From Minisyncoccota bacterium (GTDB lineage Bacteria; Patescibacteriota; Minisyncoccia; Phycocordibacterales; UBA6899), in assembly GCA_035583355.1 (NCBI GenBank), contig DATEZQ010000003.1, positions 129,844-193,843 of the forward strand: 64,000 nucleotides of DNA, in the 5' to 3' direction. A model generated the notes under the pieces. The model saw nothing but the letters and a program-made list of their open reading frames with translations. It was not told the DNA's origin and did not search any database. Positions 6,161-62,032 of the stretch are shown piece by piece (position 1 is the first letter of the stretch; the number at the start of each line of letters is the position of its first letter). The position numbers and the translations under genes were made by a program.

Positions 6161-7669
6161 TTATTTCACACGGTATTTGTTGCGAATTTCCTTCACTTCT
6201 TTTTCTTCCTCACTTGCGCGAGTACGCTTCCCTTCTTCGCCTTTCGCAAGAAGTACCTCTTGAGGAAGCATCGCGAATTCTTTTGCGGTTCGCTCGAGCC
6301 ATTCGGTTGTATTGCGCTCGGGGTCCTCAAGCACCTCATCAAAGAGTGCATTGAGGATGGCACCAATGCGCGGACCTGCAGGTTCATCGATGGTCTCCAT
6401 GATTTTTGCACCATCAATCTTTAGCATCTTCACTGATACTGGCGCGCGCATCGCTTCTTCAATCATCGAGTGATATTTGCGCAAGCGATACGGTGTCTCC
6501 ATTGGACGTCCAGTTCCTATACGATCACATGCGCGCACATTCATAAGGTCCCAGACTAATTCAGGTCCGACATTCGCAACAATGCGACGCACTGCGGAGA
6601 GTGTGATCGTCTCTATATCAGAGAAGAACATGTGATAGCGCACGAGTTGTGTGGACTTGAAAATGATTTCGCGAGAATATCGAAGGCGCTCAAGAATTTT
6701 CTTCGCCATCTTTGCGCCGATTACTTCATGTCCATAGAATGTCCACGTCTTTTTCTCCTCTGACCACCTGCGTGATGCAGGTTTGCCAACATCATGAAGT
6801 AATGATCCGAGTCGAACATGAAGTGGCCAAGAGCGATCGGCTGCATGTTGAAGGGCTCGAAGATTGTGCTCCCATACGTCATAGATGTGGATTCCCTTCT
6901 GTTCGCACCCTAGCCCCTCGATAAGCTCAGGGCAAACATAGGTGAGTAAACCCACACGATGGAGGACAAGAATGCCTTCCATTGGTTTCGCACTCATGAG
7001 CATTTTTGAAAATTCGTCACGCACACGTTCCATGGCTATCTTCTCGACAAGCGGAGCGTGAGAAATTACTGCTTCAAGAGTTTTCTCCTCGATAGTGAAA
7101 TCAAGTTGTGCGACGAAACGCACCGCACGCATGACGCGAAGTGCATCCTCAGTGAAACGCAAGTGTGGATCACCCACAGCGCGGATGGTGCGCTTTTTGA
7201 TATCGCTTACTCCGTCGTAAGGATCGATGAGCTCATCACGGACGACATTATATGCGATAGCGTTCATAGTAAAGTCGCGACGCTGCAGATCCTCATAAAG
7301 GCTCTTTGAAAATTGCACGCTGTCAGGGCGGCGAAAATCGCTATATGTAGATTCTGTTCGATAGGGTGTTATCTCAACAATGCGCAACGTTGCACGTTCG
7401 GTATCATTCTCTGGGATTGTTTCATTTACTACTCCGACAGTGCCAAAATCATTCTCATAGAATGTATGGGGAAAAAGTTCGATAATCTCAGCAGGCGTGG
7501 CATTCGTGGTAAAGTCCCAATCTTTCGGAGTCTTTCCCTCGAGGAGATCTCGGGTGCAACCACCGACGAGATAAGCTTCGTAGCCTGCGGATTCAAGAGT
7601 GGAAGCAACGGATGAGATTTCGGGTGGGATATTTAGTAGGGGCATAGTTGTGTGTTGCACGTTAAACAA
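6161..7669 (-). CDS. cca: CCA-adding tRNA nucleotidyltransferase / poly(A) polymerase family with HD domain
   Basis: Class II nucleotidyltransferase N-terminus LVGGCTRDLL and a later HDVGK HD motif. Consistent with tRNA genes here lacking an encoded CCA. Confidence 0.8.
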   Translation of the reverse strand: MFNVQHTTMPLLNIPPEISSVASTLESAGYEAYLVGGCTRDLLEGKTPKDWDFTTNATPAEIIELFPHTFYENDFGTVGVVNETIPENDTERATLRIVEITPYRTESTYSDFRRPDSVQFSKSLYEDLQRRDFTMNAIAYNVVRDELIDPYDGVSDIKKRTIRAVGDPHLRFTEDALRVMRAVRFVAQLDFTIEEKTLEAVISHAPLVEKIAMERVRDEFSKMLMSAKPMEGILVLHRVGLLTYVCPELIEGLGCEQKGIHIYDVWEHNLRALQHAADRSWPLHVRLGSLLHDVGKPASRRWSEEKKTWTFYGHEVIGAKMAKKILERLRYSREIIFKSTQLVRYHMFFSDIETITLSAVRRIVANVGPELVWDLMNVRACDRIGTGRPMETPYRLRKYHSMIEEAMRAPVSVKMLKIDGAKIMETIDEPAGPRIGAILNALFDEVLEDPERNTTEWLERTAKEFAMLPQEVLLAKGEEGKRTRASEEEKEVKEIRNKYRVK

Positions 7670-7678: not shown

Positions 7679-7714
7679 GTTTCACGTGGAACTAGTCTAA
7701 TTATATAGACTAGT
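7679..7714. promoter_or_regulatory. palindromic operator-like sites in the cca promoter
   Basis: GTTTCACGTGGAAC at 7679-7692. A perfect 9-6-9 inverted repeat ACTAGTCTA-attata-TAGACTAGT at 7691-7714 lies immediately upstream of the cca start, which is on the minus strand. Confidence 0.4.
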
Positions 7715-7821
7715 GATTAATTTGGTAGGTATCAAGATGCCAGAACTCGCCCCTTCGTCACATCCATATTTCATTTCGCTGTGCTCATGAAATATGGTGT
7801 GCGAGTAGGGCCAGGGCTCGG

Positions 7822-7964
7822 TTGCCCAGGACTCGACACCACTCACAAAGTAATTTAGGAGCAAAGCACCTAAATTACTAAGTGGTGGTCGTCACGGCTC
7901 GGCGACCCTGCGCTGCGCTTCGCGCGAGCGAGGGTGCCCGCCTCCGCCTTTCGAGTCCGGCGGG
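7822..7964. repeat. tRNA-3'-end-mimic element D, downstream of tRNA-Arg
   Basis: Degenerate direct copy of the tRNA-Arg 3' end at 7822-7840 (ttgcccaggactcgacacc). GC-rich hairpin core. Inverted copy of the tRNA 3' end at 7950-7964 (ttcgagtccggcggg). A terminator hairpin at 7981-8007 separates it from the tRNA. Confidence 0.6.
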
Positions 7965-8014
7965 ATCTCGAAAAATTGCGGCGAATAATGCTTCGCATTA
8001 TTCTTGCATTTTTG

Positions 8015-8086
8015 TGCCCCCGCCAGGACTCGAACCTGGGATAACGGTTTCGAAGACCGTTGTGATATCCACTTCACTACAAGGGC
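8015..8086 (-). tRNA. tRNA-Arg (anticodon UCG)
   Basis: Manual cloverleaf: acceptor GCCCUUG/CGGGGGC, anticodon arm ACGGU-CUUCGAA-ACCGU, T-arm CCAGG-UUCGAGU-CCUGG, discriminator A. No encoded CCA. Confidence 0.8.
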
Positions 8087-8238
8087 ATTAATTGTTTAAA
8101 ATACTCTAACCTGGGAAAAGCAAGGCGCTCCGCGCACCAGGCTTGCTTGCCCGATAAGGAGCCGCCACCGCGGCACTGATCAACTCACGCCTTCGCTCTG
8201 CTCAGTCGCTCACGGGTAACGGATTTCTTGACTGTCCC

Positions 8239-8284
8239 GATATCCGCTTCACAACAAGGGCATTAATTGTTTTTTCGAATACTC
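8239..8284. repeat. partial copy of the tRNA-Arg 5' half plus its upstream flank
   Basis: gatatccgcttcacaacaagggcattaattgttttttcgaatactc is about 85 percent identical to 8064-8106, which is the tRNA 5' part plus flank. Confidence 0.65.
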
Positions 8285-8405
8285 AAATTCTTGAAAACTT
8301 GACTGCAAAAACTATGCTCAAAAACGAGCGTAGACACAATATACGTTAAAATGGCTCACTTGCCAAATATTTTAAAATCGGTTAATATACCTCTACAACA
8401 AAAGG

Positions 8406-8476
8406 CGCGGGTATGGTTTAGTGGTAGAATGCGTCCTTGCCAAGGACGAGACGGGAGTTCGATTCTCCCTACCCGC
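8406..8476 (+). tRNA. tRNA-Gly (anticodon GCC)
   Basis: GCGGGUA acceptor, anticodon arm CGUCC-UUGCCAA-GGACG, T-arm GGGAG-UUCGAUU-CUCCC, discriminator A. No CCA. Confidence 0.85.
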
Positions 8477-8484
8477 ACAGCACA

Positions 8485-8707
8485 GAAAAAACAGAGCAAA
8501 GCTCTGTTTTTTCTTTTGTGCTTGCGGGTAGGGAGAATCGAACGGAGAGGGGTCGGGAGAGGAAGCCTCTCCCGTCTAGGAGAGCAGGAGTTTCTTGTTT
8601 CACAAGAAACCCCGTCGAGAACCGTGGGTTCTCGAAGAACTTTGCCGTGCGGGCCCCTTTAGGGTGCGCGAGCAAAGTTCGTGAGATCTCTCCCCTCCCT
8701 ACCCAGG
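8485..8707. repeat. tRNA-3'-end-mimic element A, downstream of tRNA-Gly(GCC)
   Basis: Terminator hairpin at 8491-8505 with flanking A and T runs. Perfect 20/20 inverted copy of the tRNA 3' end at 8523-8542. Hairpins cgagaaccgtgggttctcg and gtgcgggcccctttagggtgcgc. Degenerate direct copy of the tRNA 3' end at 8677-8707. The core is about 75 percent identical to element B in the opposite orientation. Confidence 0.7.
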
Positions 8708-8750
8708 CAAAGCCTGGCTAGGGAGTCCCTGATGTTCCTGGGTTTGTTCA

Positions 8751-9353
8751 GTTGTCCTTTATCCCCACTCTCCACAGCCTTATACACAGACAAAGTGTGG
8801 AAAAACTCACTCAGCTCGTATCCTTCAATGAATTTTTGTTGCTATTGAGCCACTTCACAAAGGACACTGTGGACAACCCTGTGGATAGCGGGGATAACTA
8901 TCATGCAAATGTGGAGTTCGATAGAAGTTTTCCCTAATTTCCGGAAATTTGGCTGTTCCCACCATTACTCAATTGTCTGCCCCCTGCCTCCTCCGATTTG
9001 GCCCATGTCTCTTTGATTTGCCATAGCTCCTTGATCTTATGTGCCTATACACATCATATGCCTAGGTGGTGGGGAAAACTCTGTGGATAGTGGGGATAAA
9101 GGACAAATTAGGGTATTTCCTCACGGAATTGCGATTCCTGGGGCTTTATGCTACAGTAGCGCACCTCTGAGTTCTCAGACAATGTGTGGAAAAATGGAGC
9201 AGCATCCTCGCTATTCCATAGAAATCTTATATTTTAGCCGATATTTTGCCTGTATCTGGGGATAACCCTGTGGATAGTGGGGATAAAGGACATTGATTAT
9301 CTTTGAATTCCTCAATGCACAGTCTTTGCTATTGATATACATAGTTATCCACA
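8751..9353. other. candidate chromosomal replication origin (DnaA-box cluster plus AT-rich region)
   Basis: Four copies, one inverted, of a 26-bp repeat of the form ctgtggatagYggggataaaggacaa at 8751-8779, 8877-8900, 9081-9106 and 9258-9295. TGTGGATAG is 8/9 of the DnaA box TGTGGATAA. Extra TGTGGAAAA boxes. A perfect TTATCCACA at 9345-9353 followed by aatataatttatatttaaaa. Confidence 0.5.
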
Positions 9354-9391
9354 TAATGAATATAATTTATATTTAAAACCGCGAAATACAT

Positions 9392-10445
9392 GTTTCACGG
9401 GAAACAAATTGATATATAATGGGTATATGGATCACAGGATGAGTAATACCGAGGTTGGCACTATGGGTGAAACACTTGCAGTCCGCTATCTCAAATCAAA
9501 GGGATTCTCCATTCTCGCGAAAAACTTTAATATCCCTGGTGTTGGCGAGATCGACATTATCGCTCACTGTGACGGCACTTTTCATTTTGTCGAGGTGAAA
9601 TCCTCATATTCCTTCTCGCTAAACAGTGAATATCACTCTTCTCGTAACTTTGATGATGCGAAAAAGCAACGTATTGCACGAGTTATGCGGAAATACTGTG
9701 ATTTGTATAAGATCGATAGCCCTCGAACTGTAAGCCTCTGCGTTATTTCCTTTTCACGTGAAACATATGATGCTCGCGTATTTTTTGACCCTTTTGTACT
9801 GGTTGACACTATTTGATTTCACGTGAAACGTTGGGACTTGGTTTCATACGAGTGTAATAATATATATTAATTTGGTATTCGAGCTCTGTATTTTCAGCCG
9901 GATTATTGCGCCTGCACGTTTCCCTACTGAAATAGACATTGCTCACCAGGAATCGCTGCAAAATCTGTATGTGGGTCATTACGTAACATGCCATACCCCT
10001 TCCGCTGTGTACTTGAGTATTCTGCATATAATCCAGTTTTCACGTGAAACAAATTGGATATGTGATATCCATAAACAGCCAGACGTTCATGTTCCAGCAA
10101 TGTGTTACGTAGGAACATTATGGTTTCATGTGGAACATGTGATTCTTGGTATTTTGTATTTGATCACTAAGAATGTGTAATAATTACAATTCATGAATAC
10201 CTATTCAGAAGCATATTGTAGCAAATGACCGTTGCGAAGTGTTCAGTACTGTTTCACGTGGAACAGGACATGTCGATCAATGCAATAGCTAAGCTGACCG
10301 TGATCATTGGTCTATGTAGTGCTATGGCTGCTCAGGTATGCATGGATTCTTATATGGCAATTGATATTCTGAATATTTTCTGGAGAACTGCGTGGTTGCA
10401 GAAAGTGATATTGCTGCAAGTTGGTCATTATGTTTCGCGTGAAAC
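9392..10445. repeat. array of 7 copies of the 14-bp palindrome GTTTCACGTGRAAC
   Basis: Copies at 9392-9405, 9751-9764, 9815-9829, 10036-10050, 10123-10136, 10251-10264 and 10432-10445. 9817-10620 is AT-rich with no convincing ORF. Confidence 0.7.
9409..9816 (+). CDS. YraN/UPF0102-family endonuclease-like protein
   Basis: GETLAVRYLKSKGFSILAKNFNIPGVGEIDIIAH...FVEVK. The true start is probably at an internal Met (9439 or 9463). Confidence 0.7.
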   Translation: MIYNGYMDHRMSNTEVGTMGETLAVRYLKSKGFSILAKNFNIPGVGEIDIIAHCDGTFHFVEVKSSYSFSLNSEYHSSRNFDDAKKQRIARVMRKYCDLYKIDSPRTVSLCVISFSRETYDARVFFDPFVLVDTI

Positions 10446-12000: not shown

Positions 12001-12020
12001 AAGAGCACAAGTGCTCTTTT
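12001..12020. terminator. bidirectional terminator
   Basis: aagagcacaagtgctctt hairpin plus T-run. Confidence 0.6.
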
Positions 12021-12360
12021 ATTTTTTTTCGACTTCGTCAACATACTCGAGGAAGAGTCTTTCGTCGAACCCTCCACGTTTTTCGCGTTTACTAATTTTC
12101 TTTGCAGAAAGCTCCTCTTTGTCGATCTGGTGGGCAAGGATGATTGCGTCGACAAGCTCAAGTAAGTCTGAGAGTTCGCCGATGATATCTTCTTTGCTTT
12201 TTGCCTCAAGGAGTTCCATTGCCTCCTCAATAACTTTTTGTTTAAGCGCGAGTGCAAATTGTTCATCATTCAGAATCGAGATCTTTGGTGTAGCATTGTC
12301 TGCCGTAATGATTTCGGGAATTCGATCTCGGATAAGTTTGTTGTAGGTGATGCGGGGCAT
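12019..12360 (-). CDS. MazG-like / phosphoribosyl-ATP pyrophosphohydrolase-like NTP pyrophosphatase
   Basis: Start MPRITYNKLIRDRIPEII..., about 113 aa. The upstream part of the ORF overlaps element B and is not coding. Confidence 0.55.
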   Translation of the reverse strand: MPRITYNKLIRDRIPEIITADNATPKISILNDEQFALALKQKVIEEAMELLEAKSKEDIIGELSDLLELVDAIILAHQIDKEELSAKKISKREKRGGFDERLFLEYVDEVEKK

Positions 12361-12435
12361 GAGTATAGTGTAGCATATGGAGAAGGAGAAGAGGAGAAGA
12401 GGGGAGCAAGCGTTGCTTGCGAAGAATACGAGAAG

Positions 12436-12714
12436 CGCACCCTTTGGGTGCGGCCGGGGAATCGAACAAACTTTTCTCGCGCACTCCAGAGGAGCCTCGC
12501 GCGGAAAAGTTAAGACCGGGCAATCGAACAATCACTTGTTCGCGCACCCCGGAGGGGCCCCGCACGACAAGTGATTTCGAGAACCCACGGTTCTCGACGC
12601 TCGAGGACTCGCTGCTCTCCTACGCAAGAGAGGTACCCTCTCTTGGCATCTCTCCGTTCGAATCCCGGCGCCCCTAATAAAAAAGAAAAACTCCCTGAGG
12701 AGTTTTTCTTTTTT
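12436..12714. repeat. tRNA-3'-end-mimic element B, downstream of tRNA-Pro
   Basis: Direct degenerate copy at 12450-12467 (gcggccggggaatcgaac). Core hairpins gagaacccacggttctc and gcaccccggaggggccccgc. Perfect 19/19 inverted copy of the tRNA-Pro 3' end at 12656-12674. Terminator hairpin aaactccctgaggagttt at 12679-12714. Confidence 0.7.
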
Positions 12715-12718
12715 ATTG

Positions 12719-12791
12719 TCGGGGCGCCGGGATTCGAACCCGGAGTCATCCGCTCCCAAAGCGGACATGTTAGCCGTTACACCACGCCCCG
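12719..12791 (-). tRNA. tRNA-Pro (anticodon UGG)
   Basis: CGGGGCG acceptor, anticodon arm UCCGC-UUUGGGA-GCGGA, T-arm CCGGG-UUCGAAU-CCCGG, discriminator A. No CCA. Confidence 0.8.
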
Positions 12792-12859
12792 ATATTTCTC
12801 TTTTATACACTTCGGTCATGACAGTCATCCGCTCGCATAAACTGATATGCGGCCATTAT

Positions 12860-12876
12860 GCCACGCCCCGATGTCT
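12860..12876. repeat. short partial copy of the tRNA-Pro 5' end plus flank
   Basis: gccacgccccgatgtct resembles accacgccccgatatttct at the tRNA 5' end (12781-12799). Confidence 0.4.
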
Positions 12877-14966: not shown

Positions 14967-15002
14967 AAGGTTCTGTATCAAATAATATGCGGGTGTAGTT
15001 TA
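14967..15002. repeat. exact 36-bp copy of the tRNA-Gly(UCC) 5' end plus upstream flank
   Basis: aaggttctgtatcaaataatatgcgggtgtagttta is identical to 15133-15168. Confidence 0.8.
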
Positions 15003-15154
15003 CCCCAGAAAGGAAGTGCGTAGCAATTCCTTGAGTTGCTGTGAATCGCGGAGGCGATTCCTTAGGGGGCAAGAACGCCTGGTTCGCGGAGCGACGTTCT
15101 TAATCGTAAAACTTCTTGTGGTTTGAGAATCAAAGGTTCTGTATCAAATAATAT

Positions 15155-15225
15155 GCGGGTGTAGTTTAGTGGTAAAACTCCTGCCTTCCAAGCAGGTGTC
15201 GGGGGTTCGATTCCCCCTGCCCGCA
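15155..15225 (+). tRNA. tRNA-Gly (anticodon UCC)
   Basis: GCGGGUG acceptor, anticodon arm CCUGC-CUUCCAA-GCAGG, T-arm GGGGG-UUCGAUU-CCCCC, discriminator A. No CCA. Confidence 0.85.
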
Positions 15226-15232
15226 CAACAAA

Positions 15233-15460
15233 CAAAAAAGAAGCGAAAGCTTCTTTTTTGTTTTTGTTGTGACGGGCAGGGGGAATCGAAAGACGGAGCC
15301 GGGCACCGTCACCCGGCGCAGATTTTATCCGAGCTTCGCTCGTGATAAATCCAGCCGCGTGCACGGTCGGCGAGTCGGGGTCGCGAGCACTTAGTCGCAG
15401 CGAGCTTTGCGAAGCGAGACTTAGTGACTTGAGACCGATTCCCCAAATCCGATTTCGTGT
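15233..15460. repeat. tRNA-3'-end-mimic element C, downstream of tRNA-Gly(UCC)
   Basis: Terminator gaagc-gaaa-gcttc with A and T runs. Perfect 18/18 inverted copy of the tRNA 3' end at 15273-15290. GC-rich hairpins (ccgggcaccgtcacccgg ...). Degenerate direct copy near 15444-15456. Confidence 0.6.
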
Positions 15461-15645: not shown

Positions 15646-15972
15646 ATGTCCACCCAACGCTCTACCGCTGACTACCTCCTCCAGCTTCTCGGCTCCGACC
15701 ATTTTGCAATCCGTGCTATGTTCGGCGAGTACGCATTGTATTGCGATAGTAAAGTCGTCGCACTCATCTGTGATGATCTTCTCTTTGTAAAGATTCTACC
15801 AGCAAGTATTAGACTTGAATCTCTTTGCGAAAAAGGGGAGCCATACCCTGGCGCGCGATTACACTATCTTGTAGAAGAGTCACAATGGAAATCCATAGAT
15901 GACCTACGAGATATTCTGATCGATGTTGCCGCCACACTTCCTGCTAAGAAGCCGAAGACGAAAAAGGAATAA
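15646..15972 (+). CDS. TfoX N-terminal domain protein (Sxy/TfoX-like competence regulator)
   Basis: MFGEYALYCDSKVVALICDDLLFVKI...ESQW aligns with Sxy LFGSYSLTVDDTVFAMVSDGELYLRA...ESLW. Confidence 0.65.
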   Translation: MSTQRSTADYLLQLLGSDHFAIRAMFGEYALYCDSKVVALICDDLLFVKILPASIRLESLCEKGEPYPGARLHYLVEESQWKSIDDLRDILIDVAATLPAKKPKTKKE

Positions 15973-26679: not shown

Positions 26680-26755
26680 GACCGTATAACAACTCTCTTC
26701 TTGAGGGTTGTTATTTTTTATTACGAATGTTGTGCTGTGCTATAATATGTTTACT

Positions 26756-28510
26756 ATGCTCGCCGAGGAGATCAAATTGAAGAAATTTATTATCGATTCC
26801 GGTGTCATTTCACGCGCGGATATTCTTGCTGCAGAAAAGGAAGCAGAAAATAGCAGCAGCACGCTCGCGGAAACACTTGTAAAGCAAGGGAAGGTTACGG
26901 CAGATGACATGCGTCGCATGCAGGCTTATGTGCTTGGTATTCCTTATGTCGACCTTCGTGGACAAAAGATCGAAGCTGAGGTGCTCGCATTGGTTCCAGA
27001 ACCAATAGCGCGTAGACACAATATCGTTGCATTTCGACGCTCCGAACAGGGTCTCGAGGTTGCAATGCTCGACATCAATGACCTTGAAGCGATAGACTTT
27101 GTGCGCAAGAAGGTGGGTATTCGCATACTTACGAGACTCACGGACCGGGAGTCGATGAAATCAGTGCTTCTGCAGTATCAAAAGTCTCTTAAGGCGGAGT
27201 TTGGGGATATCATCCAACAGGAAGCAAAGGCGATGAAGGTGATTCGAGGTGAGTCAGGAGATGAGGCCGCGTCTGAAATGGACCTCAAGAAGCTTGCAGA
27301 AGATCTACCAGTGGTGCGTATCGTTGATACACTACTTAATCATGCAATCTTGCAGGGTGCGTCTGATATTCATATTGAGCCAATGGAGAACCAGCTCTTG
27401 GTGCGTTATCGTATTGATGGTATTTTGCATGACGCCATGGTGCTCCCAAAGGACACCGCTCCTGGCATTACCGCACGCGTTAAAGTGCTCTCGAACCTGA
27501 AGCTCGATGAGAAGCGTTTGCCGCAAGATGGACGCTTTAAGATCCAGCTTGATGCAGAAAAAGTTTCCTTCCGTGTATCGACATTGCCGACGCACTTTGG
27601 AGAGAAGACCGTCATGCGCCTCCTCCGTGAGTCATCAGGTGGATACACCCTTGAGGCCTTAGGCTTCCACGGTTATTCACTTGAGACATTGCATCAGGCA
27701 ACGAAACAGCATATTGGACTTATTCTTGTCACAGGTCCTACTGGTTCTGGTAAGACAACGACACTCTATACAATGGTCGACATCTTGAATACTCCTGATG
27801 TAAACATTTCTACCGTTGAGGATCCTATTGAGTATCAGATGCCACGTATTAATCAGACACAGATTAGGCAAGATATTGGTCTCACGTTCGCCGCCGGTTT
27901 GCGCTCACTCTTGCGCCAAGATCCTGACGTGATTATGGTTGGAGAAATTCGTGATGGTGAAACTGCATCGCTTGCTATTAATGCTGCACTCACTGGACAT
28001 CTCGTGCTTTCGACACTCCATACGAACTCTGCTGCAGGTGCGATTCCACGCTTCATCGATATGGGTGCTGAGCCATTCCTTATCGTTTCAACGGTGAATG
28101 TTGTTGTTGGACAGCGTCTTGTGCGCAGGCTCACTGCAGCGAAAGAGAAATATAATATGACCCCCGAGGAACTGCGCAATTTGTCTCGAGGAGTCAATAT
28201 GGATCGTTTGCTTGAAGCGCTCATCGAGGAAAAGATTGTGCCAAAGGACACAACTTGGGAGACGATGCCATTCTACAAGCCAAAGCCTGGTGCTGATAGT
28301 GAAGACGGCTATAAGGGCCGTATTGGTATCCATGAGGTGCTCAAAATGTCTACGATGCTTCGCGAGCTCGCACTGAAGAATGCTCCAGCCGAGCAGATCG
28401 AGACGCAGGCACGTAAGGAAGGAATGTTTACGATGCTCGAGGATGGTATATTTAAAGCGGTGATGGGTCTGACAACCATAGAGGAAGTGTATCGTGTTGT
28501 GAATGAATAA
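26756..28510 (+). CDS. pilB: type IV pilus assembly ATPase PilB/GspE family
   Basis: Walker A GPTGSGKTT, GEIRD, an Asp box and the tetracysteine-less C-terminus of a PilB-like protein. TATAAT at 26741-26746 suggests a leaderless start at 26756. The ORF track starts at 26708. Confidence 0.85.
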   Translation: MLAEEIKLKKFIIDSGVISRADILAAEKEAENSSSTLAETLVKQGKVTADDMRRMQAYVLGIPYVDLRGQKIEAEVLALVPEPIARRHNIVAFRRSEQGLEVAMLDINDLEAIDFVRKKVGIRILTRLTDRESMKSVLLQYQKSLKAEFGDIIQQEAKAMKVIRGESGDEAASEMDLKKLAEDLPVVRIVDTLLNHAILQGASDIHIEPMENQLLVRYRIDGILHDAMVLPKDTAPGITARVKVLSNLKLDEKRLPQDGRFKIQLDAEKVSFRVSTLPTHFGEKTVMRLLRESSGGYTLEALGFHGYSLETLHQATKQHIGLILVTGPTGSGKTTTLYTMVDILNTPDVNISTVEDPIEYQMPRINQTQIRQDIGLTFAAGLRSLLRQDPDVIMVGEIRDGETASLAINAALTGHLVLSTLHTNSAAGAIPRFIDMGAEPFLIVSTVNVVVGQRLVRRLTAAKEKYNMTPEELRNLSRGVNMDRLLEALIEEKIVPKDTTWETMPFYKPKPGADSEDGYKGRIGIHEVLKMSTMLRELALKNAPAEQIETQARKEGMFTMLEDGIFKAVMGLTTIEEVYRVVNE

Positions 28511-28511
28511 A

Positions 28512-28531
28512 AAACATAGCTTTGCTATGTT
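28512..28531 (+). terminator. pilB terminator
   Basis: aacatagc-tttg-ctatgtt plus T-run. Confidence 0.65.
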
Positions 28532-28566
28532 TTTTATTTTCACATCACGAGACACTCCTCAAGTTC

Positions 28567-28680
28567 GCGGCACTGGCCTTTTTGCCGGGGGCTGCCTCAC
28601 GCTTCGCCTTCGCCGTACCACTGTACGTCGTCAGGCTCCAGCGAGGCAGCCGCCGACAAAAATGCTCAGTGTTTCATAGT
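28567..28680 (+). promoter_or_regulatory. conserved structured intergenic element, copy 1 (upstream of pilC)
   Basis: About 75 percent identical to 62033-62145. Outer stem GGCUGCCUC/GAGGCAGCC and inner hairpin CGUAC-cacu-GUACG. Copy 2 shows compensatory changes in both stems. Conserved 3' tail aaaaatgctcagtgtttcat. Confidence 0.55.
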
Positions 28681-28745
28681 TTGGGAGATGCAATGCACTG
28701 CGACTTTGTCGCAGAGGAAATACAATTCATGGTATTATTAAGACA

Positions 28746-29966
28746 ATGACGAAGTTCCAGTACAAGGCACAATTGATTGCGACAGCAGGAGAGGTTGGTG
28801 GAGTTGCTGAAGCGAAGGACAAGTTTGAGCTCGCCCATAAGCTCAAAGATGAGGGCAAGCTGCTTATTTCTGCTACTCCAGTCACTGGCTTCCATTTCAA
28901 TATGGATGCAATCAATGCACACCTCACGCGTGTGGACTTGCGAGACAAGATTCTACTTGCGAATAATCTCGCGACAATGATTCAGGCAGGACTTCCTCTT
29001 TCTCGTGCGCTCGGTATCATCTTGAAGCAAACGACAAATCCAAAGTTGAAGCAGGTGCTCGCAAGTCTCGTCGATAGTATCAACAAAGGAATGACGCTTT
29101 CTGATGCACTGAATAAGTTCCCAGATATCTTCCCTGATGTGTTTATTTCTATGGTGCGTGCAGGTGAAGAGTCAGGTGGGCTTGTGGAGGCATTACAAGT
29201 AGTAGGTGGGCAGATGGAAAAGACCTATACCCTTACGAAGAAGGTGAAGGGTGCAATGATGTATCCGATGGTGGTCACGACAGTTATGATTGCGGTGGGT
29301 GTCCTCATGATGATCTATGTTGTTCCGGGCCTCGCGCAGACATTTGCCGAAGCGAACGTCGCACTCCCTACACTGACAAAAATATTCATTGTTACCGCAG
29401 ACTTCTTGAAAAATGACAGTATCGTTGCTGCGATTTCTCTTGTCGTACTTATTGTTGGAGTAGTGCTTTTCAAGCGTACAAAGGTGGGAAACCGCACATT
29501 CGCATTTGTCGCACTTAAGGTGCCCGTATTCGGTATTTTAGTGAAGCAGTACAATACCGCTCTTGTGACACGTACGCTGTCATCACTTATTTCCTCGGGA
29601 GTAGATATTGTGCGTGCAATTGATATCACGCGAGATGTCTCGAGCAATGTCTTCTATCGTGAAACACTTGATGCAGCAAAAGAAGACGTTCAGAAGGGTG
29701 TACCACTCTCTCAGTCATTTGTGAAGAATGCACAGATTTACCCACTCATGGTTGGTGATATGATGGAAGTGGGCGAGGAGACAGGACAGCTCTCGCAGAT
29801 GCTCAAGAAGATTGCTACGTACTATGAGCAGGAAGTCGAGCAAGCAACGAGCGATATGAGTAAACTCTTTGAGCCTATTCTTATGGTTATGATTGGTACG
29901 TTCGTTGGACTCTTTGCAATGGCAATGATTAGTCCGATGTACTCGATTATGTCGACCATTAATTAA
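28746..29966 (+). CDS. pilC: type IV pilus inner-membrane platform protein PilC/GspF family
   Basis: Two GspF repeats, polytopic membrane protein, 406 aa. Confidence 0.85.
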   Translation: MTKFQYKAQLIATAGEVGGVAEAKDKFELAHKLKDEGKLLISATPVTGFHFNMDAINAHLTRVDLRDKILLANNLATMIQAGLPLSRALGIILKQTTNPKLKQVLASLVDSINKGMTLSDALNKFPDIFPDVFISMVRAGEESGGLVEALQVVGGQMEKTYTLTKKVKGAMMYPMVVTTVMIAVGVLMMIYVVPGLAQTFAEANVALPTLTKIFIVTADFLKNDSIVAAISLVVLIVGVVLFKRTKVGNRTFAFVALKVPVFGILVKQYNTALVTRTLSSLISSGVDIVRAIDITRDVSSNVFYRETLDAAKEDVQKGVPLSQSFVKNAQIYPLMVGDMMEVGEETGQLSQMLKKIATYYEQEVEQATSDMSKLFEPILMVMIGTFVGLFAMAMISPMYSIMSTIN

Positions 29967-38566: not shown

Positions 38567-40228
38567 ATGCATCCATTGACTGAGCAGCTCTTGCGTAATA
38601 GGGGGATTATCGGCCCTGCCGAACAACAGGCATTTTTGAATCCTGACTATACACGTGATGTGCGTGATCCTTTTGGCATTCTCAATATGGAAAAAGCAGT
38701 TGATCGCATTCTTTCGGGAATGCGTGCGGGTGAGGATATTGTCATCTTTGGAGATTACGACTGTGATGGTATTCCTGGTTCAGTCATTCTCCATGATCTC
38801 TTTGTAAAGATTGGTTACGATAATTTCCGTAATTACATTCCACATCGACATAATGAAGGTTATGGGTTATCAGTTGCGGCAGTGGAGAAATTCATCAAGG
38901 AAGGTGTGCAGCTTATCATTACGGTCGACTGTGGTATTACTGATGTCGCCGCAGTCGAAGTCGCAAATGCTGCAGGAATAACGGTCATCATCACTGACCA
39001 CCATTTGCCTGGGCCGGTACTTCCTCCCGCTTTCGCAATTCTCAATTCAAAGCAAGAAGGGGATACCTATCATGACAATATGTTGTGTGGGGCAGGTGTG
39101 GCATTCAAGTTGTCTCAAGCAATGCTCAAGAAAGGCGGATTTGCGGATATTCCCGATGGTTGGGAAAAGTGGCTTCTTGATATGGCGGGCATTTCGACGA
39201 TTGCGGACATGGTGCCACTTGTGAAAGAGAATCGCGCGCTTGCATACTTCGGACTGAAGGTGCTTAAGCGTTCTGCGCGTCCAGGTCTTAAGGCATTGCT
39301 TGCGACCGCGAAAGTGGATCAGCGTTTTCTTACTGAGGAAGATGTGGGATTTACAATCGCGCCTCGCATCAATGCAGCATCGCGCATGGCAGAGCCTATC
39401 GCCGCATTTCATATGCTTGCAGCAGACGATGAGGCGAAGGCGATCGCACATGCAAAGGCACTTGAAGATCTCAATAATTCTCGCAAGCTCGCAACGAAGA
39501 AGATGGCCGAGGAGGCACACCGTATAGTTTCAGAACTTAAAAAGATACCAGAGGTACTCGTTGTCGGAAAGATTGGATGGTCAGTTGGTGTGGCAGGCAT
39601 CGTTGCGGCACAACTCGTGGAGCGCTACCAAAAGCCCGCATTCGTATGGTGTCAGGATGGTGATGAGATCAAAGGGTCCTGCCGCTCTGATGGTTCGATT
39701 AGCGTCGTTGAGCTGATGCATGCGGTTCCTGGAGAAGTGTTCATTGCGCGGGGTGGCCATGCACAAGCGGGTGGCTTCAGTGTTCATCCTGATCATATTA
39801 ATGATTTTGCAAAAGCATTGAATAAGGCACACAAAGGGGTTACTAAGAATATTTCGCCTGATAGTCTCTATGAAACAGACGGACATTTGCAGCTTGCTGA
39901 TGTTTCGAGGGAGACCTATAACGCCATCACGGCACTCGCTCCATTTGGCGAAGGGAATCCAAAGCCGATATTCGCTTTCGAAGGAGTGCGTGTTGCTGAT
40001 GTGCAGATGTTCGGCAAAACAAAAGAACACCTGAAGGTGGTGCTCAGCGATGAATTGGGTCGCTCTGCGGAGGCAATTGCTTGGTATAAAACTCCAGCGA
40101 GCTATCCGCATGCACATCTAGTGAAAGGTGGAAGTGTGACGATGATCGCACATGTTGAGGAGTCACGATTCCTTGGCAAGGTACAGTTACGATTACGCAT
40201 TATTGATATTCTCCCGGCACGTATATAA
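38567..40228 (+). CDS. recJ: single-stranded-DNA-specific exonuclease RecJ
   Basis: DHH (GDYDCDGI, ITDHH) and DHHA1 domains. Confidence 0.85.
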   Translation: MHPLTEQLLRNRGIIGPAEQQAFLNPDYTRDVRDPFGILNMEKAVDRILSGMRAGEDIVIFGDYDCDGIPGSVILHDLFVKIGYDNFRNYIPHRHNEGYGLSVAAVEKFIKEGVQLIITVDCGITDVAAVEVANAAGITVIITDHHLPGPVLPPAFAILNSKQEGDTYHDNMLCGAGVAFKLSQAMLKKGGFADIPDGWEKWLLDMAGISTIADMVPLVKENRALAYFGLKVLKRSARPGLKALLATAKVDQRFLTEEDVGFTIAPRINAASRMAEPIAAFHMLAADDEAKAIAHAKALEDLNNSRKLATKKMAEEAHRIVSELKKIPEVLVVGKIGWSVGVAGIVAAQLVERYQKPAFVWCQDGDEIKGSCRSDGSISVVELMHAVPGEVFIARGGHAQAGGFSVHPDHINDFAKALNKAHKGVTKNISPDSLYETDGHLQLADVSRETYNAITALAPFGEGNPKPIFAFEGVRVADVQMFGKTKEHLKVVLSDELGRSAEAIAWYKTPASYPHAHLVKGGSVTMIAHVEESRFLGKVQLRLRIIDILPARI

Positions 40229-41029: not shown

Positions 41030-42733
41030 GTGGATATGTTGGGGATACTACTCTATTACGCTGCTAGTATCATGGAGTATACTCAACTGATGCCTCGCAT
41101 CCGTGACTACTTACTGCCTTCTCTCTTTGCATTCGCGTGTGGCGCAATTATTGGCGTATACACGAATTATGCACTTATGTTTGGATTGATTATCGGAACA
41201 AGTGTGCTTATTGTGCTACCACGGATATTCAAAGGTAATTACCCGCTTACGCGCATTCTATTTATTGCATTGTTTGTATTTGTGCTTGGAGTGTTTAGGG
41301 GAGCAGCACTCCACGATCAATTTGATTGTTCTCTGCTCTGCGCAAAGGTAAATACGCTCGTTAGCGTGGTGGGTGTCGTAGATAGAGAGCCAGAGTTTCG
41401 TGATGGGTCAGAGCGTTTTGTGGTCCGACTTACAGAAGCAAATGACATACGTGTACAGGCGAACATACAGCATGCTCCAAGTCTTTCTTACGGCACAGAG
41501 GTACGCCTTACAGGAATACTTCGCGAACCCGAAGATTTTGAAGGTATAACCGGGGCCTTGTTCCGATATAAAGACTTTTTACATGCACGGGGCATTATGT
41601 ATGTAATGAATAATGCACGCGTGGAAAGTTTAAGATACGATCAAGGGAATTCTGTTATTGGACTCCTGCTTTCCTTCAAGCAAAAGATAAAAGAAATTTG
41701 TGATCGGTTGCCTTCCCCCGAAAGTGGATTGTTGATGGGAATGATCTTTGGAGGAAAAAATGGACTCCCGGCAAACATACAAGATGATTTTCGTATTGCA
41801 GGAATCATTCATATTGTAGTGCTCTCCGGAGAAAATCTCACGATCATTGCGTTGCTTGTTATGTGGGTCATTCGAAAGTTTCTTGGATTCTACACGGGTA
41901 TCATGGTGTCGGCGTTTGTTATATCCCTCTATGCAATTATTGGAGGAATGGAGCCCGCAACAATGCGTGCGTTAGTGATTGTGCTACTGGTATTCGTTGC
42001 GACACTTTTGCGCAGAGAGGTAAGTCTCCCGCGAATACTTTTTATTGGTGCGATGCTCCTCATTGTGTACAATCCGTTATTGCTTTTTGATGACCCGAGT
42101 TTCCAGCTTTCCGTGCTCGCAATGCTCGGGCTTATATTCATTGGACCGATCATTGAGCGCAGTTTGCTTACTCGTGGTATCCCGCTCCTGTTTACGAGTT
42201 ATCTCGCGCCAATTTTTGCAGCGCAATTGGGGGTGTTGCCGTATATCATGTATACGAGTCAGTCATTTGCTTCGTATGCATTTCTTGCGAATGCGCTCGT
42301 CCTGTTCATTATCGGTTTTCTCTCAATTGGCGGAATGGTAGTCGTTGCTATTGGATGGGTGCTACCGTCGTTGCTTTCGATTATTGCGTTTCCTGTGGTA
42401 ATCGCACTCAGTGCAGTACTTCATATTGCTCATGGTATCGCGCAATTGCCCTATGCAGCATTACCTCTACATATTTCAGGATGGTTCACCGCCACGGTTT
42501 ATCTGTTTGTCAGCGTATGGATATTCAGAAGGTATCACGATGGAACACTTACTCCACTTGCGCTCTTTACACTCAAGGAAGAGGTAAAACAGATTGCGAA
42601 AAGAAAAATCCCTTGGGCACCTCCAATTCCAGATGTGCAAGGGATTCAGTTTAATCATCTTGATTTTGTTTTTGTGGCGGAGCAGCGGAAGGAGAAAGTC
42701 GATACGGAGCGAACCATTTGCTGGGATGATTGA
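41030..42733 (+). CDS. comEC: DNA internalization competence protein ComEC/Rec2, membrane channel part without MBL domain
   Basis: DUF4131-like N-terminus, a competence domain and polytopic TM helices. 567 aa, with no C-terminal metallo-beta-lactamase domain. Confidence 0.75.
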   Translation: MDMLGILLYYAASIMEYTQLMPRIRDYLLPSLFAFACGAIIGVYTNYALMFGLIIGTSVLIVLPRIFKGNYPLTRILFIALFVFVLGVFRGAALHDQFDCSLLCAKVNTLVSVVGVVDREPEFRDGSERFVVRLTEANDIRVQANIQHAPSLSYGTEVRLTGILREPEDFEGITGALFRYKDFLHARGIMYVMNNARVESLRYDQGNSVIGLLLSFKQKIKEICDRLPSPESGLLMGMIFGGKNGLPANIQDDFRIAGIIHIVVLSGENLTIIALLVMWVIRKFLGFYTGIMVSAFVISLYAIIGGMEPATMRALVIVLLVFVATLLRREVSLPRILFIGAMLLIVYNPLLLFDDPSFQLSVLAMLGLIFIGPIIERSLLTRGIPLLFTSYLAPIFAAQLGVLPYIMYTSQSFASYAFLANALVLFIIGFLSIGGMVVVAIGWVLPSLLSIIAFPVVIALSAVLHIAHGIAQLPYAALPLHISGWFTATVYLFVSVWIFRRYHDGTLTPLALFTLKEEVKQIAKRKIPWAPPIPDVQGIQFNHLDFVFVAEQRKEKVDTERTICWDD

Positions 42734-43361: not shown

Positions 43362-46300
43362 GTGGTAAATTTGGTTAATGGACATAAGGGAAGGCACGTG
43401 TCAACTCAGGCCTTCTGCCTGATTATGGAATATAATAGGCATATGCTATTGCTCCCAAAGTTCGAAGAGGATTATCAGCGCTTAACCTCGCTTCAGAAGG
43501 AGGTGGTGGACACCGTTGATGGACCACTTATGGTCGTTGCGGGGCCAGGTACCGGAAAGACACAGGTGCTTGGACTTCGTGTCGCAAATATTTTGAAAAC
43601 GCGGGACGTTTCCCCAAACAATATTCTCTGCCTGACCTTCACTGATGCAGGTGCAGTGAATATGCGCGAACGCCTCGAGCGCTTCATCGGTGCTGATGCA
43701 TATCGTGTCGGAATTTATACGTTCCATGCATTTTGTAATGCAACGATTGGAAGGCATCCAGAATATTTTTACAATGCAGCGACCTATGCTGCTGCTGATG
43801 ATATTGCGCGCGCAGAAATCGTTGAACAGCTTTTCGTAAAGTTGCCACATCGACATCCGCTTGCAAGCTATCATCCCGATGAGGGATTCGTCTATCGTCG
43901 TGACGTGATGGAGCGCATTAAGCACATCAAATCAGCGGGCTTCACGCCGGACGAATATATTCGAGAAGTGGAAGCGTATGCAAAAGAGATGCCAAAAGCA
44001 AGCAAGGTGCTTGCCTCGTGGCCAGATCGTCTTGCGATCAAATCGCTCGCTCCTATCGAACAGATTCTTGGCGAACTCCTCGCAATCGGAACAAGTTATA
44101 GCCTCTTCCTCGCAAAGACACTTTCTGTCGCTTATGAGGAAGCTCGAGATTTAGGAAAGACGGGGCCGCTTGGAGATTGGAAAAAGAAATTCACCGAGAA
44201 GGGAGATGATGAGGTGGTAGTCCTCAAAGATCTCGGCCGCATCGAGAAGATGCGTGCGGTTGCAGCGATGTACAAAGACTATGAGGATGCACTTCATGAG
44301 CGTGCGCTCTATGATTATGATGACATGATCATCGATGTCCGATGCGCACTTGAGGAGAATAGTACGTTGCGTAATGTGCTTGAAGAACAATATCAATATA
44401 TCCTTGTCGATGAGTTCCAGGACACCAATGAAGCGCAGATGAAATTGGTCGTCGCACTCTCTTCGAATCCTGTACATGAGGGCAGGCCGAATGTGATGGT
44501 GGTGGGCGACGACGATCAGGCTATCTTCAAGTTTCAGGGAGCTGAGCTTTCGAACATTCTCAATTTCGAGCGCATGTACAAGGATGTACAGACGATCGTG
44601 CTTGATAAGAACTTCCGCTCACACAAAGATATTCTTGATGCAGCACGTAAGGTGGTGCTTCAGGGTTCGTATCGTCTCGAAACGGTAAAGAAGATATCGA
44701 AGGAGCTTGTGCAGGGGAACAAGGATTTGAAGACCGGGAACGTGACGTATAAGCAATATGGCTCAGATATTGAAGAATTTGCCGCTGTCGCCGCAGCAAT
44801 TGCTGCACAAATCGCAAGGGGCGAGGATCCAAAGGAGATTGCAGTTATTGCGCACAAGCATGCGCAGCTTCAGGATTTTCTTCCGTACCTTGAGCGCGAG
44901 GGTGTGCCGTATTCGTATATACGTCGCGCGAGCGTCTTCGATGAGCCGCATATTCACGAATTGATTACCGTTTGTGATTATCTCGCATCACTGTCGGGAG
45001 AGGGAGTGCGCAAAGATGAACTCCTTCCGCAAATTCTCACACTCCCCACATTTGGTTTGTCACGCACGATGCTCTTTCGCATTGCAGTGCGTGCGAAGGA
45101 CGAGCGCAAGAGCTGGTCTGAAGTCATTGGGGAAATGGAGGATGCGCCGATCCAAAATGCATTTGCATTACTTGCAAAGCTTGGTGGTAGCGCCGAGAGC
45201 ATGCCGCTTGAACATTTGCTCGACGAGTATATGCGTGAGTCGGGATTCCGTACGCACTACTTTGGGAAGGATGCACTCAAGGAGAAGCCTGCACAGTATG
45301 TCGCCTTCCTCGCATCGCTGAAGACATTCATCGAAGCACTGCGCGGTTGGCGTGAGGGTGAACCACTCTTTGCGCGCGACGTTGCACCATTCGTGGCGCT
45401 CCACAAAGAGCAGGGCATTGGCCTCGTGAGTACTTCACCATTTGTCAAAGGTGGACGAGCGGTACAGGTCATGTCCGCACACAAGAGTAAGGGACTTGAG
45501 TTTGGTAGCGTATTTATTATCGGAGCGCATGAGTCCGTATGGGCAAAGGGTGGGCGAGCGAATAAGGCTCCGGTGCCTGCACCACTTGTGCCACGCATCT
45601 CTCCAGCAGGAGAGGACGAAGATGATTTCATTCGTATACTCTATGTTGCACTTACGCGTGCAAAACACACACTCTCGGTGACGGGACATAATAAGCTAGT
45701 GAAGTATCTCGGCGAGATCAGTGATGTTCCCGAGGAAGATGCAAAACTCGATATCGACTCCGAAGAAGGAGCGCGAGCTATTCTCGCGCATGAACAAGTG
45801 CTTTCTTTGACTGCAGCCCCGTATGTCGAGGATGAGTTAGCGGTGCTTAAAGAAGCGCTCAGTGATTATCGTCTGTCAGTGACCCATCTCAATAATTTCC
45901 TTGATGTGACTGCTAATGGTCCCGCATATTTTCTTGAGCAAAACCTGTTGCACTTCCCGCAACCGATGAGTGTGGCAAGTACATTTGGTTCGGCTATTGA
46001 TACTGCGCTCACCGAGCTCGTGCGCTATCCGAAATATAATGCGGGGGAGTCTGCGCCACTTGAGCGACTTATTGCGGTGTTTAAACGTGAACTCGCAAAA
46101 GGGCGACTACCTCAGGATGAGGCACGTAAGCAAATTCGCCGCGGAGAAGAAGTGCTTGCCGCATATGTTGGAGCAAAGAAGGGGTATTTCCAAATCGAGG
46201 ATGAAGCGCAAGTGGACTTCCGTAATGAAGGTGTGGTGATCGAAGGCGCTCCACTTTCCGGAAAGATCGACCTTTTGCGCCAGGAAGCAGGGGAATTCCA

Positions 46301-61472: not shown

Positions 61473-61943
61473 ATGCGTCGACCAGTAAAGAATCGTAATA
61501 TCCGCCAGGCGGACTTCAAGTACAACTCACTTGATATCTCACAGCTCGTAAACTACGTCATGTGGGATGGTAAGAAGACAATCGCAGAGGCAGTCGTTTA
61601 TGACTGTATGGATGAGATTGCAAAGAAGACAAAGGTGGAGAATCCATCTGAAGTCCTCAAGGCAGCTATCCAGAACGCAGGTCCTTTGATCGAAATCCGT
61701 TCACGTCGTGTCGGTGGTGCAAACTACCAGGTTCCACGTGAGGTTCGTGACGAGCGTCGCCGTTTCCTCGCTCTCCGTTGGATCATCGGTGCAGCTCGTG
61801 CAAAGAAGGGTGTCAAAATGGCAACCAAGCTTGCAGATGAGATCATCGCAGCATCAAAGAATGAAGGTGAGGCTATTAAGAAGCGCGACAACGTGCACAA
61901 GATGGCCGAAGCAAATAAGGCGTTCGCGCACTTTGCTTGGTAA
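61473..61943 (+). CDS. rpsG: 30S ribosomal protein S7
   Basis: Typical S7, 156 aa. Confidence 0.95.
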   Translation: MRRPVKNRNIRQADFKYNSLDISQLVNYVMWDGKKTIAEAVVYDCMDEIAKKTKVENPSEVLKAAIQNAGPLIEIRSRRVGGANYQVPREVRDERRRFLALRWIIGAARAKKGVKMATKLADEIIAASKNEGEAIKKRDNVHKMAEANKAFAHFAW

Positions 61944-61946
61944 TAA

Positions 61947-61978: not shown

Positions 61979-62032
61979 ACCAAGAGCGCGAACGCCTTAT
62001 TTGCTCCGCCCATCTTCGTCGTGACCATATTT

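Follow-up and report, generated by a model that had tools for sequence, protein, structure and literature searches.

The 64,000-nucleotide (nt) stretch of contig DATEZQ010000003.1 from a Minisyncoccota bacterium that was analyzed here (hereafter, the window) contains four tRNA genes, and all four carry the same arrangement of short repeats on their downstream side. We focus on the arrangement behind the tRNA-Pro(TGG) gene, element B, whose functional strand is the minus strand, i.e., the strand of tRNA-Pro; farther along this strand lies a MazG-like gene (12019-12360) with a PRA-PH/MazG-type fold. Reading in the tRNA sense, we define the following components of the arrangement: (i) S1, the tRNA's own 3' end; (ii) a hairpin or terminator; (iii) AS, an antisense copy of the tRNA end; (iv) a GC-rich folded core; and (v) S2, a degenerate direct copy of the tRNA end. 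The open reading frames (ORFs) inside 12436-12717 are mechanical only, do not exceed 98 amino acids (aa) and all lie within the structured repeat region; none of them was taken as a gene. The coordinates of the features are collected in Table 1.

The plus-strand sequence of AS in element B (GTTCGAATCCCGGCGCCCC) is the exact reverse complement of S1, with 19 of 19 positions matching. The complementarity runs on through the symmetric hairpin that separates the two copies and is probably the tRNA-Pro terminator; therefore, the tRNA end, the hairpin and the inverted copy represent one palindrome of ~84 nt, with the hairpin at its centre. CCA is absent from the sequence of the tRNA-Pro gene, and AS lacks a complement of CCA, which indicates that it was copied from the DNA of the gene and not from the mature tRNA; a retrovirus-like primer-binding site was rejected on the same observation. 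(CCA is encoded in none of the four tRNA genes of the window.) On the far side of the core, S2 is best read as a displaced older end of tRNA-Pro. Its alignment to the tRNA end (~12446-12467) contains 17 matches, 2 mismatches and 2 gaps, a score equaled by 22 of 500 shuffled sequences, and its T-loop reads TTCGATT, compared to TTCGAAT in the live gene. Taken alone, this similarity is weakly above chance, and it is the family context described below that makes S2 of element B credible. The internal partial copy of the T-loop and T-stem (12516-12531) is identical to 12454-12469 at 15 of 16 positions; it reflects an internal tandem duplication, in which it is the end of the first of two tandem modules, each consisting of a hairpin and a copy. 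The small hairpin directly after S2 may be a remnant of the original tRNA terminator, and the pseudo-tRNA-Pro located 31 nt upstream of the live gene is read as a displaced 5' end. The P2 hairpin of element B is fully compensated compared to the family consensus (GGGAAAAC...GUUUUCCC), and the counterpart of the family motif AGGGGUC is degenerate (AGAUGCC); together with the duplicated module of P5 and S2 and the worn S2 itself, these properties indicate that B is an old copy.

Table 1. Features of element B, its sister elements and the recombination-related genes of the window (positions are those of the window)
Feature	Position	Strand	Details
tRNA-Pro(TGG), target gene	12718-12791	minus	ARAGORN; Rfam tRNA model, 64.4 bits
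S1, last ~20 nt of tRNA-Pro	12721-12739	minus	starts at G53 in the T-arm, ends with the acceptor 3' strand
Symmetric hairpin, 19+19 nt, 4-nt loop	12676-12717		100% complementary; folds; A-run precedes, T-run follows
AS	12656-12674	minus	antisense to tRNA-Pro positions ~53-72 (T-loop, T-stem 3' strand, acceptor 3' strand)
P2 core hairpin	12626-12644	minus	AAGAGAGG-GUA-CCUCUCUU; type-2 alignment (A3), covariation
Conserved purine-rich joining strand	12612-12625	minus	GCGUAGGAGAGCAG (family consensus GUGGAGGAGAGCAG); near-invariant A3 columns
P3 region	12598-12611	minus	CGAG...CGAG motif; authors' reading of the alignment
P4 hairpin, signature of the type-2 core	12577-12597	minus	UCGAGAACCGUGGGUUCUCGA; common to element A (8615-8635)
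P5a, long variable hairpin	12531-12575	minus	repeat analysis and folds
Internal partial T-loop/T-stem copy	12516-12531	minus	GUUCGAUUGCCCGG on the minus strand
P5b, duplicate of the P5 hairpin module	12469-12511	minus	inverted repeat and folds
S2, degenerate direct copy of the tRNA 3' end	12452-12467	minus	GUUCGAUUCCCCGGCC
Small hairpin directly after S2	12435-12452	minus	GCACCC-AAA-GGGUGC; sequence, folds
Pseudo-tRNA-Pro, 5' part	12823-12872	minus	covers acceptor strand to variable loop; identity to the live gene 86-93%
Element A, at tRNA-Gly(GCC) 8407-8478	8521-8720	plus	AS against S1, 21/21
Element B, at tRNA-Pro(TGG) 12718-12791	12452-12674	minus	AS against S1, 19/19
Element C, at tRNA-Arg(TCG) 8014-8086	~7826-7965	minus	AS against S1, 15/16, one indel
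Element D, at tRNA-Gly(TCC) 15155-15226	15273-15441	plus	AS against S1, 18/18
Xer-like recombinase and competence/recombination genes	1181-2125; 15646-15972; 26708-29966; 38567-40228; 41030-42733; 43362-46670		

The four elements of the window fall into two classes by their cores: A and B share a type-2 core, and C and D share a type-1 core with the motif AGNCGGAGGC...GAG(G/U)CGGGGUCGCGA...CGUGAC. A profile built from 54 metagenome copies, with the window excluded, had exactly two matches in the window, namely element A (8545-8638, E = 1.6e-12) and element B (12634-12575 on the minus strand, E = 5.5e-11), and the P4 signature likewise matched the window twice versus 0.02 matches expected. The apical part of P5a is also common to element A, while its stem is fully compensated. 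AS is perfect in both elements, though the A and B loci, as aligned, average 74% column identity. Thus, the original prediction, which described element B as an architecture tied to a tRNA 3' end in the same way as element A, with homologous hairpins, a perfect 19-nt inverted copy and a third, internal partial copy, agrees with our results (the minus strand of A aligns with the plus strand of B, and the independent profile found these two elements only); the degenerate direct copy that it proposed was located as well, with the statistical weakness described above. The possibility that A and B are the two ends of one 4-kb element was rejected: each of them matches the tRNA at which it lies, and the intervening DNA, which includes a cluster of DnaA boxes and a YraN gene, is syntenic chromosomal sequence in relatives. 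It should be noted that there are also duplications on the 5' side of tRNAs (14967-15168, 8103-8272 and 12823-12872). At tRNA-Gly(TCC), a GC-rich insert of 130 nt lies between the copies of a 36-nt direct repeat, which is made up of the promoter and the first 14 nt of the tRNA; a pseudo-tRNA-Arg is split by a 94-nt insert; and the Arg and Gly 5'-side inserts both contain GGCAAGNANGCCTGGTNCGCGGAGCG. These duplications may be 5'-end-targeting cassettes of another type; the relationship between AS and the gene end was not found in the 5'-side duplications of the window.

We examined a set of 81 sequences (80 related genome loci and the window) with 240 tRNA genes, the four of the window included; 33 of these genes have AS and, no more than a few hundred bases farther on, S2. 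The CCA-adding enzyme encoded in the window (6161-7669) is most similar, with 62% identity, to proteins of Candidatus Yonathbacteria and other Paceibacteria/Parcubacteria, and in those genomes its gene adjoins the same Arg/Gly/Pro/Gly tRNA cluster as in the window. At least four unrelated core types are present among the relatives, and many of the relatives have a perfect S2 of 18-24 nt. The orthologous site between tRNA-Gly(GCC) and the DnaA-box region downstream of it varies from genome to genome: L001 has an empty site, whereas there is a type-1 element in L002, L004 and L013, a type-2 element in the window, a type-3 element in L016 and L073, and a type-4 element in L012. Within a genome, there is a tendency toward one type at different tRNAs (L012, L043, L002, L039 and the window). 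Tandem arrays were found at tRNA-Gly(TCC) of L005, where type 2 is followed by type 1, and at tRNA-Pro(CGG) of L252, where type 2 is followed by type 3. The two modules of S, spacer and AS in L252 are identical at 72 of 72 positions around unrelated cores; either the cores were exchanged in a constant frame, or the frame was duplicated locally with each insertion. A variant was observed at tRNA-Pro of L048 and L008, in which an insert of ~65 nt is followed by a direct copy of 24-33 nt that includes the whole T-arm, and AS is not recognisable.

Metagenome contigs scanned for the P4 signature yielded at least 120 loci. We analyzed 123 motif instances, i.e., the listed metagenome loci, elements A and B, and one related genome locus. 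Among the matches listed, 41 of 123 follow a tRNA gene (21 anticodon classes; the median distance from the tRNA end to the motif is 125 nt), and most of the other copies are located at termini of conserved protein genes. Two kinds of protein-gene targets can be distinguished: (i) 5' targets, in which the element is upstream of and antisense to the N-termini of EF-G, LepA, TypA and RuvX; (ii) 3' targets, in which the element is downstream of the C-termini of ribosomal proteins L7/L12 and S9 and of H+-pyrophosphatase (H+-PPase). The layout at protein genes comprises the functional gene end (X+Y), AS, the core, and a second copy of the gene end (X'Y'). To count AS, we required an ungapped complement of at least 10 nt, located in the 32 nt before the core, to a site within ~370 nt upstream; this relationship was found in 41 of 68 unique copies and in none of 68 shuffled controls. 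A direct repeat between the two flanks was found in 44 of the 68 copies. The site complementary to AS begins 1-8 nt before the direct repeat and extends 10-20 nt into it, so that it straddles the boundary.

The two gene-end copies at coding targets differ by 128 synonymous and 33 nonsynonymous codon differences, and several of the nonsynonymous differences are located at the junction with the core. The prevalence of synonymous differences shows that both copies evolved independently as functional versions, one of them being foreign (from another lineage), and are not the product of a fresh target-site duplication. AS fits the functional copy better than it fits the second copy (15/15 versus 8/9 in L200, 15/15 versus 14/16 in L214, and 16/16 versus 13/16 in L277). 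On our reading of this difference, the unit that came in comprises the functional gene end, AS and the core, and S2 is the resident end that it displaced. We also compared L214, located at the C-terminus of H+-PPase, to L240, located at tRNA-Ile, both from the sample series Ga0209542. Their P2-P4 cores are near-identical, with compensatory changes in P3, while AS and the P5/3' modules differ; this suggests modular exchange or gene conversion between copies. In the tRNA-type copies with a type-2 core (L301, L302, L199 and L252), a 3' module, GAGUGAGAU-AGCGAAGCG, precedes the T-stem 3' strand. This module resembles the T-stem and T-loop (GAGUUCGAU) with UC replaced by GA, plus a GCGAAGC mini-hairpin, and looks like a built-in, disabled mimic of the target.

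The type-2 core consists of AGGGGUC, P2, GUGGAGGAGAGCAG, P3, P4 (UUGAGAACCGUGGGUUCUCAA) and P5. Folding has a polarity: of 83 unique cores, 67 have the more stable fold on the tRNA-sense strand and 16 on the opposite strand, and P4 contains 8 G-T wobbles versus none of the equivalent A-C combinations. RNAalifold applied to 56 copies detected compensatory changes in 7 of 8 pairs of P2, in P4 and in the base of P3. On the tRNA-sense strand only, tandem sheared G-A pairs are predicted to be possible between the CGAG...CGAG flanks of P3. Based on these patterns, the core is a folded single strand of tRNA-sense polarity, and both RNA and single-stranded DNA are compatible with the results. A common co-transcriptional role is unlikely since the core is antisense to the gene at 5'-end targets.

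Judging from the sequence comparisons, element B is a worn copy of a widespread and apparently undescribed family of insertion cassettes of ~100-250 nt in Patescibacteria (the Candidate Phyla Radiation, CPR). The cassettes contain no ORF; a full-text literature search, which included sequence strings, revealed no description of them, and recent work on tRNA introns in Patescibacteria concerns group I introns in the anticodon loop. The comparisons show that each insertion comes with a substitute for the end of the gene, that the former end is retained beyond it, and that such insertions are found at many conserved targets and vary between genomes at a given site. In its behaviour, the family resembles target-restoring elements of the site-specific integrative or homing kind, and it does not match integrase-borne islands, miniature inverted-repeat transposable elements (MITEs), introns, omega RNAs or bridge RNAs, or diversity-generating retroelements (DGRs). 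The reading we favour, with a probability of about 0.5, is a non-autonomous cassette that replaces the end of a gene and spreads by recombination within conserved targets.

Representing the cassette in the tRNA direction, we propose four parts: (i) a replacement gene end, in element B the last ~20 nt of tRNA-Pro and the hairpin terminator; (ii) AS, complementary to the target across the insertion boundary; (iii) the conserved folded core (P2-P5); (iv) the displaced original gene end (S2), which would decay afterwards. An insertion of this kind would be harmless because the replacement end completes the gene. The cassette would spread between genomes by recombination inside the conserved target, with the body of the gene serving as the left homology arm and S2 as the right one. 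DNA uptake followed by homologous recombination of the host is the most likely route because ComEC, type IV pili, TfoX, RecJ and an AddA-like helicase-nuclease are encoded in the window. Homology across lineages requires a conserved sequence, and a short surrogate end requires a site near the terminus of a gene, which together would explain the choice of targets. AS would pair with either X or X', and in either register AS and the core would close the heterologous insert into a hairpin. Core modules would be exchanged among the copies of one genome by gene conversion, and this would explain the agreement of core types within a genome.

Several observations weigh against this reading. No trans-acting enzyme has been identified, and the reading leaves unexplained how AS and the replacement end for a new target originate. 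The right arm at tRNAs (S2) is 15-24 nt long, which is short for recombination of the RecA type, and S2 of element B itself is weak. We found no strain-level pair of filled and empty sites (the two contigs obtained by an exact-protein look-up, from other samples of the same strain, have an identical element B), nor was any excised or circular form seen. The strain is present in samples SRR5133178 and SRR5177929. The invariance of P4 is no evidence because the metagenome set was ascertained by the P4 motif, so that P4 was fixed by the search pattern. Finally, a core conserved this strongly implies some function, and the proposed model does not name one.

An alternative, which we consider unlikely although it survives better than the others, is site-specific integration guided by nucleic acid. 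AS would be a programmable guide whose pairing with the intact target spans the cut site, the core would be either the scaffold for a putative trans-acting enzyme (an HUH/Y1-type enzyme, a recombinase, a reverse transcriptase or a nuclease) or itself catalytic, and insertion would occur at the edge of the duplex between guide and target. Such a mechanism accounts for several findings: one core family is found at no fewer than eight unrelated targets, each with a target-matched AS; the site of AS straddles the boundary of the duplication by 1-8 nt; AS is immediately 5' of the conserved core, with a short fixed linker; it remains perfect in A and B (21/21 and 19/19) despite the divergence of the two loci; and an intact target is regenerated, with tandem re-insertion taking place. 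There is a resemblance to the omega RNAs of TnpB and IscB, the bridge RNAs of IS110 and intron guides, in which a target complement of 14-25 nt lies beside a structured scaffold and spans the insertion point. Unlike these systems, the cassettes are not associated with a gene for TnpB, IscB or an IS110 recombinase (TnpA, TnpB, IscB and IS110 domains are missing from the 54 window ORFs scanned with Pfam) and have no match of sequence or structure in Rfam; their guide would copy, in inverted orientation, the resident gene next to it and not flanking DNA. An associated ORF was seen neither inside nor next to any of the copies, and viral contigs, phage genomes and plasmids yielded no match. In addition, a guide that best matches the resident functional copy would target itself, a perfect AS could alternatively be maintained by template-switch correction of the quasi-palindrome, and the occurrence of the same architecture with unrelated cores in types 1, 3 and 4 argues against a single dedicated scaffold. 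A broader form of this idea, to which we give a substantial though minority chance, is a new class of mobile elements without protein genes, in which an antisense guide fused to a conserved scaffold of RNA or single-stranded DNA would program the choice of target. Insertion would then occur at the edge of the guide:target duplex together with a surrogate gene end, would be either ribozyme-like or dependent on host enzymes, and could be retargeted to any conserved gene terminus.

It is improbable that the cassettes are leftovers of integrase-mediated integration into tRNA genes, with S1 and S2 as attL and attR of a deleted island or prophage (similar to cis-mobilizable elements, CIMEs), possibly still mobilisable in trans by a tyrosine recombinase. 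Like the islands and prophages that integrate into tRNA genes, the cassettes have their boundary in the T-loop and are flanked on each side by the tRNA 3' part, the copy next to the gene gives a working tRNA, and the gene end that they bring stems from a different lineage; some islands (dusA-type) likewise target protein-gene ends. Direct repeats of the tRNA 3' end that start in the T-loop are the classic signature of this process (perfect, 18-24 nt, in relatives and degenerate in B), the gene end borne by the element is foreign, and the window encodes a tyrosine recombinase (1181-2125). However, the cassettes are 100-250 nt long, as opposed to kilobases, contain neither an integrase nor any other ORF, and have an antisense copy of the target and a structured core that is common to unrelated targets; a conserved, covarying core at 120 or more loci is not expected of random deletion remnants. 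No integrase, transposase or reverse transcriptase was found beside any copy, including the copies in relatives. A single recombinase could not recognise the T-arms of tRNAs, the P-loop codons of GTPases, the ends of rplL and the ends of PPase genes, and the recombinase of the window, which is the nearest recombinase gene to element B and the sole one in the window, looks like a housekeeping Xer-type enzyme located ~5.6 kb from the nearest cassette (C). A phage or plasmid origin was rejected as well: viral contigs scanned with two type-2 patterns gave no match, all 115 matches to a looser type-1 pattern in these contigs were removed by the flanking-feature filter, and BLAST searches of phage and plasmid collections with the sequence of element A gave no match.

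We see a slim chance that the elements are cis-acting RNAs beneficial to the host, which would be co-transcribed and function in the formation, stability or processing of tRNA and mRNA 3' ends, with AS pairing with the end of the transcript. The fold in the gene sense at 3'-end targets, with its G-U pairs, GNNA loops and tandem G-A pairs, the location at highly expressed genes and the very stable 3' structure that S1, the hairpin and AS would make are consistent with such RNAs. Conversely, at the GTPase and RuvX genes the element is antisense and precedes the 5' end, and no single cis role fits both these and the 3'-end targets; in A, B and D, there is a terminator between the tRNA and the element; the same tRNAs of close relatives are without the element; one site holds different core types in different genomes; and the foreign duplicated gene ends and tandem arrays point to insertion. 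A local rearrangement, in which snap-back or template switching at the terminator hairpin produces a direct-inverted-direct triplication (tandem inversion duplication), is highly improbable as a complete explanation, even though the palindrome of S1, hairpin and AS has the terminator loop at its centre and extends over spacer bases that are not conserved, and the overall order is direct, inverted, direct: the rearrangement does not explain the covarying core shared by all these loci, which largely refutes it, nor the synonymous-only divergence between the copies, nor the position of AS straight after a gene end of 50-90 nt with the rest of the inverted copy missing. Template switching may contribute to the origin of AS.

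We also compared the cassettes to other small or mobile elements. MITEs, CIMEs, palindrome-associated transposable elements (PATEs) derived from IS200/IS605, and repetitive extragenic palindromes with their mosaic elements (REP/BIME) are likewise small, hairpin-rich, multi-copy sequences without ORFs, located at gene ends or in intergenic regions and presumably dependent on functions provided in trans. In contrast to these, the terminal inverted repeats of the cassettes (AS and S2) originate from the target, each site having its own, the target duplication of 15-100 nt reaches the terminus of the gene, with one copy being foreign, and no parent autonomous element is known; a MITE was rejected since the inverted repeats copy each local target and the duplications diverge at synonymous sites. 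Homing elements (group I introns, inteins, free-standing homing endonuclease genes, and fungal mitochondrial elements with a foreign C-terminal end) also target the most conserved stretches of essential genes, which in the case of the cassettes are the tRNA T-loop, the GTPase P-loop region, rplL and rpsI, apparently spread across lineages, and co-transfer flanking gene sequence that gives mosaic or foreign ends. The cassettes, however, are confined to gene termini with a surrogate end, do not imply splicing and are not accompanied by an endonuclease gene. A group I intron was rejected: no Intron_gpI match at E <= 10 was found in B or in the type-1 and type-3 loci, and the confinement to termini argues against a spliced intron. 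Integron attC sites and attP(+) of CTX-phi share with the cassettes two inverted repeats that flank a variable or structured centre of 60-200 nt and strand-specific folding that recreates an attachment duplex, whereas the stem of the cassettes is target-specific and not a recombinase box, no IntI is present, no relationship to Xer and dif has been demonstrated, and there is no cassette ORF. A pair of variable and template repeats of a DGR was rejected because the differences between S1 and S2 of L214 involve all bases and are not adenine-specific, and a reverse transcriptase domain is missing from the window. ARAGORN reported only the four tRNAs, so that a gene for a transfer-messenger RNA or another tRNA-like gene was rejected, and only these four tRNAs passed the gathering thresholds in an Rfam 15 scan of the window; permissive Rfam scans of B and of the type-1 and type-3 loci gave tRNAs and hairpin artefacts only, e.g., microRNA models on the palindrome. 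A mimic of the acceptor/T-helix, considered for type-3 copies, was dropped as a general explanation, the same architecture being present at protein genes.

The remainder of the window provides context for these elements. In addition to the Xer-like tyrosine recombinase, it encodes a set of natural-transformation and recombination proteins (TfoX_N, PilB, PilC, RecJ, ComEC and the AddA-like helicase-nuclease). The neighbouring ORFs of 339, 171, 146 and 183 aa have no Pfam or NCBIfam match, and the 339-aa ORF has no PDB match either, so that they offer no lead toward an enzyme. The region 7680-10444 has features that make it look origin-like: 12 of the 25 DnaA-box-like 9-mers of the window are clustered in 8759-9353, all 7 copies of the palindrome TTTCACGTGAAA in the window are within this region (0.24 expected), and it contains three 36-nt repeats; the same motifs are found downstream of tRNA-Gly(GCC) in relatives. 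The YraN-family ORF is located at 9409-9816. Elsewhere in the window, the gene for ribosomal protein S7 (61473-61943) is followed by a gene for a 532-aa RCC1-repeat protein and not by fusA (region 61473-63851); the RCC1-repeat protein has a pilin-type N-terminal methylation motif.

The original prediction also held that the element fills the whole upstream region of the MazG-like gene and may supply or disturb its promoter. Our boundaries do not agree with the first of these points: element B ends at ~12452 (~12435 if the next hairpin is included), leaving ~75-90 nt of non-element sequence before the start codon at 12360, and the gene, encoded on the functional strand of B, is merely the downstream neighbour of the displaced tRNA end. 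A scan of the MazG strand for sigma-70-like consensus sequences revealed no convincing site in or beside B; TATGCT/TATACT hexamers in the last 75-90 nt before the ATG could be a candidate -10 element. A purine repeat (12377-12406; GGAGAA/GGAGAAGAGGAGAAGAGGGGAG on the plus strand, polypyrimidine on the strand of the gene) was observed between B and the start codon.

If the proposed interpretation is correct, it poses the question of how the antisense copy of each new target arises and stays perfect. Should AS direct the insertion, the cassettes would represent a very compact programmable integration system, and guided integration without a protein gene would, if true, be categorically new. For the CPR, the interpretation would mean that streamlined genomes hold many minimal selfish or symbiotic protein-free cassettes at the ends of essential genes (tRNAs, EF-G, LepA, L7/L12 and S9). 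It would account for the partial tRNA copies and GC-rich islands near CPR tRNA genes that confuse annotation, and mosaic gene ends would be a marker of horizontal exchange between CPR lineages.

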